Sequence record: OR352938.1
Strand: one strand, 5' to 3'
Source: Escherichia phage AV108
Length of the DNA: 64,000 nucleotides
Made by a program: the position numbers and the translations under genes. This document shows positions 35,236-35,934 of the stretch, piece after piece. A model generated the notes under the pieces. It had not been told where the DNA came from. It made no database searches and saw only the letters and a list, made by a program, of their open reading frames with translations. How positions within the stretch are numbered: the first letter of the stretch is position 1; each line of letters opens with the position of its first letter.

Positions 35236-35934
35236 CTAACCACGGGTATAGTGTTCCAGAACAACTGTCAGATGAATATATTCTAATAGATCTTTCCAAA
35301 AGTCAACATCTGGTTCTTCCGGCATACCGTTTTTCTTTGCCTCTTCACGCGCGAGTTTAACACGCTCGTAGAGATCTTTCAATTCTTCCCGCACATTATC
35401 AAAGGTTCTTTCTCCTAACTTACACGCTAAAATAGAAGAACGTCGCGCGAGCGGGAATTGTAGATCACCAGTTTGATAGATTTCAAGTAGCTGATAACCA
35501 ACACGCAGAGCATGAGAAAGATCTTTCCAGTTACTGAAATACTTTTCAGATTTTGCTACCTGTTTCTTGAGATAACCAGACAAACCCCACATCCCAACAT
35601 GATAGAATTTATCGCGATGTGTTCGGATGTATTCCCATTCTCTGGAGGATTCAATCAACATGTTACTAGGAGCGTGCACCATGTCAATAGCGCCGATATC
35701 GCCTTTACATGCCAGATTGATAAACCGTTTTAGACTGAACATATTAACGTCAATATCGTCTTTGGTGTTCTTGATACCTTGACCGCTAGTGCTTTGGTCA
35801 TAGTGTTCTTTCATCGATCCTAAGATAATTTCTTTCGCAGTAGGAACAAAGATACCACGATAATCTTTATCTGAATTTTCAGTATCAAGGCCGTATAAGT
35901 GAGATCCGAAGACCATTTTAACCATTGTATGCAT
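35236..35934 (-). CDS. Minimal nucleotidyltransferase (Pol-beta superfamily fold) candidate
   Basis: 232 aa; N-terminal GS-x9-DxD (FGSHLYGLDTENSDKDY) followed by third acidic strand DIDV, the hallmark of MNT/Pol-beta NTases. Confidence 0.5.
   Translation of the reverse strand: MHTMVKMVFGSHLYGLDTENSDKDYRGIFVPTAKEIILGSMKEHYDQSTSGQGIKNTKDDIDVNMFSLKRFINLACKGDIGAIDMVHAPSNMLIESSREWEYIRTHRDKFYHVGMWGLSGYLKKQVAKSEKYFSNWKDLSHALRVGYQLLEIYQTGDLQFPLARRSSILACKLGERTFDNVREELKDLYERVKLAREEAKKNGMPEEPDVDFWKDLLEYIHLTVVLEHYTRG

Follow-up and report, generated by a model that had tools for sequence, protein, structure and literature searches.

NrdC.11 of Escherichia phage AV108, an insert-less RlaP-family nucleotidyltransferase with a possible role in RNA repair

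The nrdC.11 locus

The window analyzed here is a stretch of 64,000 nucleotides (nt) from Escherichia phage AV108 (record OR352938.1). Its first 25 kb and the 5.5-kb gene neighborhood match 58 Krischvirus (RB49-like, T4-type) genomes at 90 to 99% identity. The gene under study, nrdC.11, runs from ATG to stop over 699 nt. Upstream of it lie a NUMOD4/HNH endonuclease gene and a GrcA-like gene, and downstream lie three small paralogous open reading frames (ORFs) and regB. The features of the locus and of the encoded protein are as follows.

35236..35934, minus strand: nrdC.11 coding sequence (232 amino acids plus stop), RlaP-family nucleotidyltransferase (ORF list, Pfam, PHROG, RB49 annotation)
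35942..35946, minus strand: Shine-Dalgarno sequence GAGGG, 7 nt 5' of the ATG (read from the sequence)
35599..35934, minus strand: N-terminal Pol-beta nucleotidyltransferase (NTase) core, residues 1 to 112 (AF2 model, hhalign to canonical RlaP)
35863..35907, minus strand: catalytic motif G10-S11 ... D22-x-D24, GSHLYGLDTENSDKD (translation and conservation)
35749..35757, minus strand: D60-I-D62, with D62 as the third catalytic carboxylate (translation; on strand 61-67 of the model)
35239..35589, minus strand: C-terminal helical domain, residues 116 to 232, a KNTase_C/HEPN-like bundle
35530..35550, minus strand: deletion junction S129-EKYFS-N135, site of an alpha/beta insert of ~100 amino acids (aa) in relatives (alignments A1, A3, A6)
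35503..35526, minus strand: K137 ... R144 motif (KDLSHALR), opening the C-terminal domain right behind the junction
35953..36546, minus strand: free-standing NUMOD4 plus HNH_3 homing endonuclease gene, 18 nt upstream of nrdC.11
36566..36589: terminator-like hairpin behind the vs.6 homolog
36595..37008, minus strand: vs.6 homolog, 137 aa, with a C-terminal glycyl-radical motif (Pfam Gly_radical, 9.8e-16)
35020..35214, 34778..35038, and 34381..34716, minus strand: small ORFs of 64, 86, and 111 aa (PHROGs 6261 and 15978)

The GAGGG sequence falls within the 18-nt spacer behind the stop codon of the HNH gene, and the start codon of nrdC.11 is taken to be right because the N-terminus lines up with the N-termini of all orthologs. 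The HNH gene is absent from reference RB49 and from those krischvirus records whose matches to the 5.5-kb query stop at 89% coverage, and it is present in L004, a 57%-diverged syntenic relative. The AV108 endonuclease has no similarity to T4 mobD, which is an unrelated homing endonuclease on the same side of nrdC.11. These findings suggest that homing elements may repeatedly target nrdC.11 or the junction upstream of it. On the downstream side, the three tandem small ORFs are paralogs of one another (blastp, 2e-12 and 3e-4). The RlaP gene is followed by two small ORFs both in L004 (68 and 87 aa) and in the contig L085 (66 and 87 aa). The vs.6 homolog resembles GrcA/YfiD, the "spare part" for pyruvate formate-lyase.

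No RNA ligase gene adjoins nrdC.11; such adjacency, to which RlaP owes its name, is a trait of just a part of the family. RB49 encodes pseT (polynucleotide kinase/phosphatase), rnlA (RNA ligase 1), and a second Pnk-like protein, RB49p229, with rnlA and pseT lying ~75 kb from nrdC.11. ARAGORN found no tRNA or tmRNA genes in the window, so any tRNA substrate would be that of the host. In the RefSeq record of RB49 (NC_005066), gene 57B (60725..61189, inside the span of the window) is labeled "RNA ligase." The ORF at the matching position in L085 (365..820), which adjoins a homolog of gene 1 (dNMP kinase), matches Pfam Acb1, the anti-CBASS phosphodiesterase family; should 57B and this ORF be homologs, the product name given by RefSeq is likely in error.

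Family assignment and domain architecture

The nrdC.11 product is 100% identical to the protein of one RB49 record. RefSeq RB49 NC_005066 annotates the gene as nrdC.11 (RB49p098), "nucleotidyltransferase; similar to T4 tk.-11," and the NrdC.11 proteins of T4-type phages, whose counterpart of ~336 aa is encoded beside mobD, are 42 to 48% identical to the AV108 protein. The protein matches Pfam PF10127 (RlaP, RNA repair pathway DNA polymerase beta family) with 53.6 bits at a cutoff of 23 (E = 3.4e-14), residues 7 to 191 aligning to profile positions 24 to 198 of 249. The short ortholog P0002 covers profile positions 23 to 229. PHROG 388, "nucleotidyltransferase," is matched at E = 2e-79. An exhaustive HMMER search returned 3575 cluster representatives at E ≤ 1e-3, the best 150 of which are NrdC.11-type, and NrdC.11 was found in more than 1600 phage records. 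When the profile of these 150 relatives was compared by hhalign with a profile of 15 canonical bacterial RlaPs, the match had a probability of 95% (E = 3.7e-8); it covers the NTase domain alone because an insert in the relatives breaks the local alignment. Canonical bacterial RlaPs are about 255 aa long, reach as much as 272 bits against the Pfam model, and form a split apart from the NrdC.11-type sequences in a neighbor-joining (NJ) tree.

Other searches were negative. An NCBIfam scan gave no match, PADLOC returned a chance-level match alone (E = 0.032), and PDB searches with the single sequence and profiles A1, A2, and A5 found no solved relative in a copy from which the PfRlaP structure was absent. 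In a Pfam scan at E ≤ 1, RlaP was the sole match, with no NTP_transf_2/MNT, antibiotic-NTase, or CCA-adding-enzyme family. From these sequence comparisons, it is nearly certain that the ORF belongs to the RlaP family and is the RB49-type ortholog of T4 NrdC.11. The gene, its name, and its superfamily and family assignment are already public, and the biochemistry of the family has already been reported. Many GenBank and UniRef entries call the ORF or its T4-type ortholog "thioredoxin" or "glutaredoxin nrdC," which looks like an error that spread from the locus name nrdC.11. One public entry names NrdC.11 "putative HNH homing endonuclease."

Residues 9 to 25 of the product read FGSHLYGLDTENSDKDY, and residues 60 to 63 read DIDV. 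G10, S11, D22, D24, and D62 are invariant or at least 90% conserved among 150 relatives, the best of the 3575 representatives. In the alignment with canonical RlaPs, G10 and D22 are invariant and S11 and D24 are at least 90% conserved, and D62, K137, and R144 show no variation in the NrdC.11 clade plus canonical RlaP. K137 and R144 may serve in NTP or RNA binding. The original prediction had placed a 232-aa ORF at 35236-35934 with a Pol-beta superfamily signature and a third acidic residue in DIDV. The ORF is real and lies on the minus strand, which had not been stated, and translation and conservation bear out both sequence elements. The spacing had been given as G-S-x9-D-x-D and is corrected to G-S-x10-D-x-D, as ten residues lie between S11 and D22.

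The AF2 model of NrdC.11 is compact (pLDDT 96.2) and consists of an NTase core (residues 1 to 112), with beta strands 2-9, 23-30, 44-48, and 61-67 and flanking helices, followed by five helices at residues 116 to 230. The AV108 protein is collinear with 254-aa canonical RlaPs (alignment A3). Fold matches of the model are KNTase, LinB, AAD(9), and DrrA, and the C-terminal bundle resembles HEPN domains, among them those of AMPylated HEPN toxins. Since the helical domain at ~116 to 230 is integral to the family, NrdC.11 is a two-domain KNTase-like enzyme and not an MNT-type one.

These results allow the remaining claims of the original prediction to be revisited. A nucleotidyltransferase of the Pol-beta superfamily in an accessory region was correctly called, the gene lying in the dispensable early-gene region of the phage. 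The description "minimal" is not upheld, as the protein has the full canonical two-domain RlaP layout and is short only relative to the NrdC.11 subfamily. The absence of a recognizable fused partner domain has to be qualified, in that residues ~116 to 230 form the helical domain integral to the RlaP family. The clade, for which structure prediction and profile searches had been proposed, is RlaP with an NTase core plus a helical domain, and the statement that no choice could be made from sequence gives way to the assignment to PF10127/RlaP and to orthology with T4 NrdC.11. Two of the suggested roles found no backing. Neutralization of HEPN toxins has neither an MNT match (Pfam, PADLOC) nor a HEPN neighbor, and an MNT antitoxin of a HEPN-MNT module was rejected on these grounds, together with the two domains in 232 aa and RlaP as the sole Pfam match. 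Synthesis of signaling nucleotides likewise has neither a CD-NTase match (Pfam, PADLOC) nor an effector neighbor, and a CD-NTase/cGAS-like synthase (SMODS), which is also missing among the fold matches listed, was rejected.

The gene is well conserved. AV108 and reference RB49 nrdC.11 differ at 12 nt, 11 of which are synonymous, and the one amino acid change is V94I. The full 699 nt are kept in 58/58 krischvirus records at 96.1 to 99.0% DNA identity, and the protein is at least 99% identical in 57 of the 58. Both short orthologs, the AV108/RB49-type protein and the 57%-identical P0002, keep their catalytic and cleft residues. This pattern of substitution indicates that nrdC.11 is under purifying selection. 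The ORF is real and conserved and is not a new kind of element.

The insert region and NrdC.11-type genes in bacteria

Almost all close relatives of NrdC.11 are 300 to 350 aa long and match the AV108 protein in two stretches, and the PHROG and tblastn matches break in the same manner. The ~100 extra residues of the relatives lie between "...GYxxKQAAK" and "WKxxSHAxR," which the RB49-type protein joins via SEKYFSN. In a model of a long form, the insert comprises residues ~135 to 235; in the RB49-type model, a 4-residue loop links helices 116-131 and 136-155. The insert was surveyed in 238 sequences, composed of 223 NrdC.11-type proteins and 15 canonical RlaPs. The region measures 80 to 130 residues in 218/223 NrdC.11-type sequences and 11 residues in the RB49-type protein, and the insert is absent in 5 of the 223. 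Canonical RlaPs are without the insert and collinear with the RB49-type protein, which makes the insert a feature of the NrdC.11 subfamily.

An NJ tree rooted on the canonical RlaPs (computed in numpy from capped distances, with junction columns removed and 100 bootstraps) places the five insert-less forms in at least three places among the long forms. The three insert-less groups formed a clade free of long forms in 0/100 bootstraps, and direct sequence comparison showed that the junctions differ among the insert-less forms. These data argue for at least three independent losses of the insert. P0121 (327 aa; L085 6001..6984, plus strand) is the nearest long form and is encoded on a contig with krischvirus gene order: endolysin, vs.8, GrcA-like, two small ORFs, RlaP, two small ORFs, regB, vs.1, vs, tk, and rI. 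The insert of P0121 is degenerate, the conserved KYGxKGSRL and YGxRAxxAxxNxG motifs being gone, and the protein looks like an intermediate toward the RB49-type deletion. The short ortholog P0002, 57% identical to the AV108 protein, is encoded in another syntenic contig. Searches of the 64-kb window by tblastn with three insert sequences gave no significant match to insert-like sequence elsewhere. On this evidence, the RB49-type protein is a secondarily shortened NrdC.11 that has returned to the canonical RlaP layout, and the deletion took place in situ in the RB49 phage lineage, sparing the K137...R144 motif. Loss of the insert need not abolish catalysis, since canonical, active RlaPs are without it. 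Its absence also means that the substrate choice of the RB49-type protein could differ from that of T4 NrdC.11.

Long NrdC.11-type forms are common in bacteria, with 154 confirmed matches. Neighbors within 6 kb of the gene were tabulated for 76 loci, some of which look like phage contigs binned into metagenome-assembled genomes although they are classed as bacterial. RtcB occurred at 9/76 loci, Ro60/TROVE at 5/76, and a PrfH-like RF-1 at 3/76. At 16/76 loci, the long NrdC.11-type gene is directly followed downstream by a canonical RlaP gene (~255 aa). The tandem pairs, in each of which the match lies at ~6001-6950, are at the following loci.

L013, L015, L023, L027, L031, L037, L043, L049, L059, L063, L065, L067, L069, L072, L074, and L080

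Beyond the second RlaP, RtcB, Ro60, and PrfH, no neighbor family was present at more than 9 of the 76 loci. Several tandem pairs, e.g., those of L037, L065, L069, and L074, are inside Ro60(TROVE)-RtcB(-PrfH) operons. The NrdC.11 subfamily itself, and not just the canonical one, is therefore tied to RNA-repair operons. The pairing suggests that members of the two RlaP subfamilies cooperate or form a heterodimer. In the RlaP literature covered, no description of a tandem long-plus-canonical pair was found. Phage-borne canonical RlaP is found chiefly in Pseudomonas jumbo phages, and T4-type phages do not have it, so that RB49 has an NrdC.11-type enzyme only.

A proposed role in RNA repair and comparison with known systems

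Burroughs and Aravind are reported to have named RlaP for its gene linkage to RNA ligases and to have predicted that it puts back nucleotides missing from damaged RNA ends ahead of ligation (PMC7824862, PMC12776372). In jumbo phages, the distribution of RlaP mirrors that of RNA ligases (PMC7824862). A non-peer-reviewed preprint of December 2025 describes two Pseudomonas RlaPs, PfRlaP and PaRlaP, encoded between rtcB and rtcA (PMC12776372). Both enzymes label RNA and not DNA or E. coli protein, require a 3'-OH, prefer Mn2+, and add 1 to 2 NMPs from any NTP, with dATP also being used (PMC12776372). They label rRNA-, tRNA-, and fragment-sized E. coli RNAs as well as single-stranded RNA oligonucleotides, and a 3'-phosphate end is no substrate (PMC12776372). 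With a nicked-tRNA mimic, they favor the 3' end at the anticodon-loop break and are less active on the acceptor 3' end, and they partly rescue aminoacylation of a tRNA that is one anticodon-loop nucleotide short (PMC12776372). In the crystal structure of PfRlaP, a cleft separates an N-terminal NTase domain from a C-terminal helical domain, and the last helix packs onto the NTase helices (PMC12776372). RtcB requires a 3'-phosphate end, whereas RnlA uses 3'-OH and 5'-P and is directly compatible with the RlaP product (PMC12776372). T4 NrdC.11 is listed in the RlaP family in SSN cluster 5, and the assayed enzymes belong to a different cluster (PMC12776372).

We propose a gap-filling model in which NrdC.11 adds 1 to 2 NMPs to an RNA 3'-OH ahead of PseT and RnlA in tRNA repair, and we consider this model, taken as a whole, somewhat better than an even bet. 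Host anticodon nucleases of the RloC type would cut the tRNA and take out a nucleotide. In NrdC.11, D22, D24, and D62 would hold two metal ions, probably Mn2+, with the NTP sitting in the interdomain cleft formed by the NTase core and the helical bundle. The metals would activate the 3'-OH of the broken RNA for attack on the alpha-phosphate of the NTP, and the outcome would be the template-independent addition of one or two NMPs. NrdC.11 would thereby restore the nucleotide on the 5' half, and the PseT kinase/phosphatase and the RnlA ligase would reseal the full-length tRNA. RlaP action together with PseT would supply the 3'-OH and 5'-P ends that RnlA requires. The activity of the phage enzyme, tRNA as its target, and its cooperation with PseT and RnlA are what we infer. 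The model is supported by the family assignment, the catalytic signature, the two-domain fold, purifying selection, the presence of pseT and rnlA, and the association of bacterial relatives with RtcB and Ro60.

Several observations speak against this model. The assayed RlaPs come from a different SSN cluster and from one preprint, and the phage gene is far from rnlA and pseT. The authors of the preprint themselves point out that nucleotide addition by RlaP is not base-specific (PMC12776372), so only a fraction of the repaired tRNAs would be correct. T4 tolerates deletion, in the laboratory, of the segment that contains nrdC.11 (PMC9825161), and no phenotype or identified host toxin was found here for this T4 gene. 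The original prediction had named tRNA 3'-end repair as a candidate role. Repair against host nucleases is in line with the family assignment, but CCA-end repair fits the substrate preference less well than does an anticodon-loop gap.

Other readings of the enzyme were weighed against gap filling. NrdC.11 might be an RNA 3'-end NTase with another job, such as acting on CCA ends or tailing small RNAs or mRNA fragments, e.g., the products of RegB. That RlaPs label many RNA size classes and single-stranded RNA oligonucleotides with any NTP would suit such a role, as would the position of krischvirus nrdC.11 three small ORFs from regB, an mRNA endoribonuclease gene, and no target anticodon nuclease for NrdC.11 has been identified. 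The proximity to regB is not conserved, however, as the gene order of T4 is different. E. coli encodes its own CCA-adding enzyme, and RlaP prefers the 3' end of an anticodon-loop break over the acceptor 3' end. A 3'-phosphate is no RlaP substrate, and endonuclease products bearing one would need PseT first. We regard this reading as unlikely. The NrdC.11 subfamily could also be a counter-defense NTase with a substrate of its own, either a HalB-like maker of decoys for oligonucleotide-gated host defenses or an RNA 3'-end capper that blocks host toxins, which we consider quite improbable. If this were true, the recurrently lost insert would be a module for target choice, and the bacterial pairs of long and canonical forms in Ro60-RtcB operons would be a two-enzyme system with divided labor. 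Free or protein-primed oligonucleotide synthesis as in HalB, which makes oligo-dA, would provide a decoy or signal against host defense; a HalB-type NTase with detectable homology next to a HalA membrane channel was not what was found at nrdC.11, and we give this version very little credence.

Nucleotidylation of a protein (MNT-like AMPylation of a HEPN toxin) or of a small molecule (KNTase- or Lnu-like) would draw on the resemblance of the fold to KNTase, LinB, AAD(9), and DrrA and of the C-terminal bundle to HEPN domains, including AMPylated HEPN toxins. It is extremely unlikely, given that RlaP is the only Pfam match at E ≤ 1 and PADLOC yielded no MNT or antibiotic-NTase family, that no HEPN or toxin gene lies beside nrdC.11, that a two-domain protein of 232 aa does not have the MNT architecture, and that RlaPs left E. 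coli proteins unlabeled. We judge it equally far-fetched that NrdC.11 is a decaying remnant, inactivated by loss of the insert and persisting as an ORF by chance. The protein does miss ~100 aa that almost all NrdC.11-type relatives retain, and its T4 ortholog is dispensable in the laboratory. Against decay stand the synonymous nature of 11/12 substitutions relative to reference RB49, the retention of full length by every one of the 58 krischvirus records, intact catalytic and cleft residues in both short orthologs, and a compact, confident model. Canonical active RlaPs also do without the insert, and at least three independent losses preserved the remainder of the protein.

T4 provided the first RNA repair pathway, in which PseT and Rnl1 act against PrrC. 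A third, nucleotide-restoring component, as the gap-filling model would have it, would explain how phages survive "smart" anticodon nucleases that not only cut but also take out a base. Given its occurrence in over 1600 phage records, NrdC.11 ranks among the more widespread uncharacterized enzymes of T4-type phages. The insert-less RB49-type form and its syntenic relative with a degenerate insert are a ready pair with which to probe the NrdC.11-specific insert. What is added here is incremental: a natural insert-less NrdC.11, a subfamily-specific insert that was repeatedly lost, an intermediate with a degenerate insert, and tandem pairs in Ro60-RtcB operons.

Among known systems, T4 NrdC.11 (tk.-11) shares with the AV108 protein the catalytic and WKxxSHAxR motifs and the N- and C-terminal domains, and both genes lie in a dispensable early region. 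The T4 protein has ~336 aa rather than 232, the insert at ~135-235 being missing in the RB49-type form, and its gene lies between nrdC.10 and mobD, whereas RB49-type nrdC.11 lies between vs.6 and regB. PfRlaP and PaRlaP share PF10127, an NTase core plus a helical domain without insert, and the conserved G, S, three Asp, Lys, and Arg residues. Canonical RlaPs belong to another subfamily, however, and are 13 to 21% identical to NrdC.11 (alignment A3), and the Pseudomonas RlaPs are in rtcB-rlaP-rtcA operons, whereas the phage NrdC.11 gene has no adjoining ligase gene. Hailong HalB (PDB 9dbh) is 13% identical to NrdC.11 with no profile-level sequence link, and its own features (processive, tyrosine-primed, dATP-specific, paired with a membrane effector) were not seen for NrdC.11. 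Kanamycin nucleotidyltransferase ANT(4') and LinB act on small molecules, are ~12% identical, and belong to other Pfam families. The CCA-adding enzyme is likewise a Pol-beta NTase that carries out template-free repair of RNA 3' ends. It differs from NrdC.11 in belonging to another family, in being sequence-specific, and in its architecture of head, neck, body, and tail domains.
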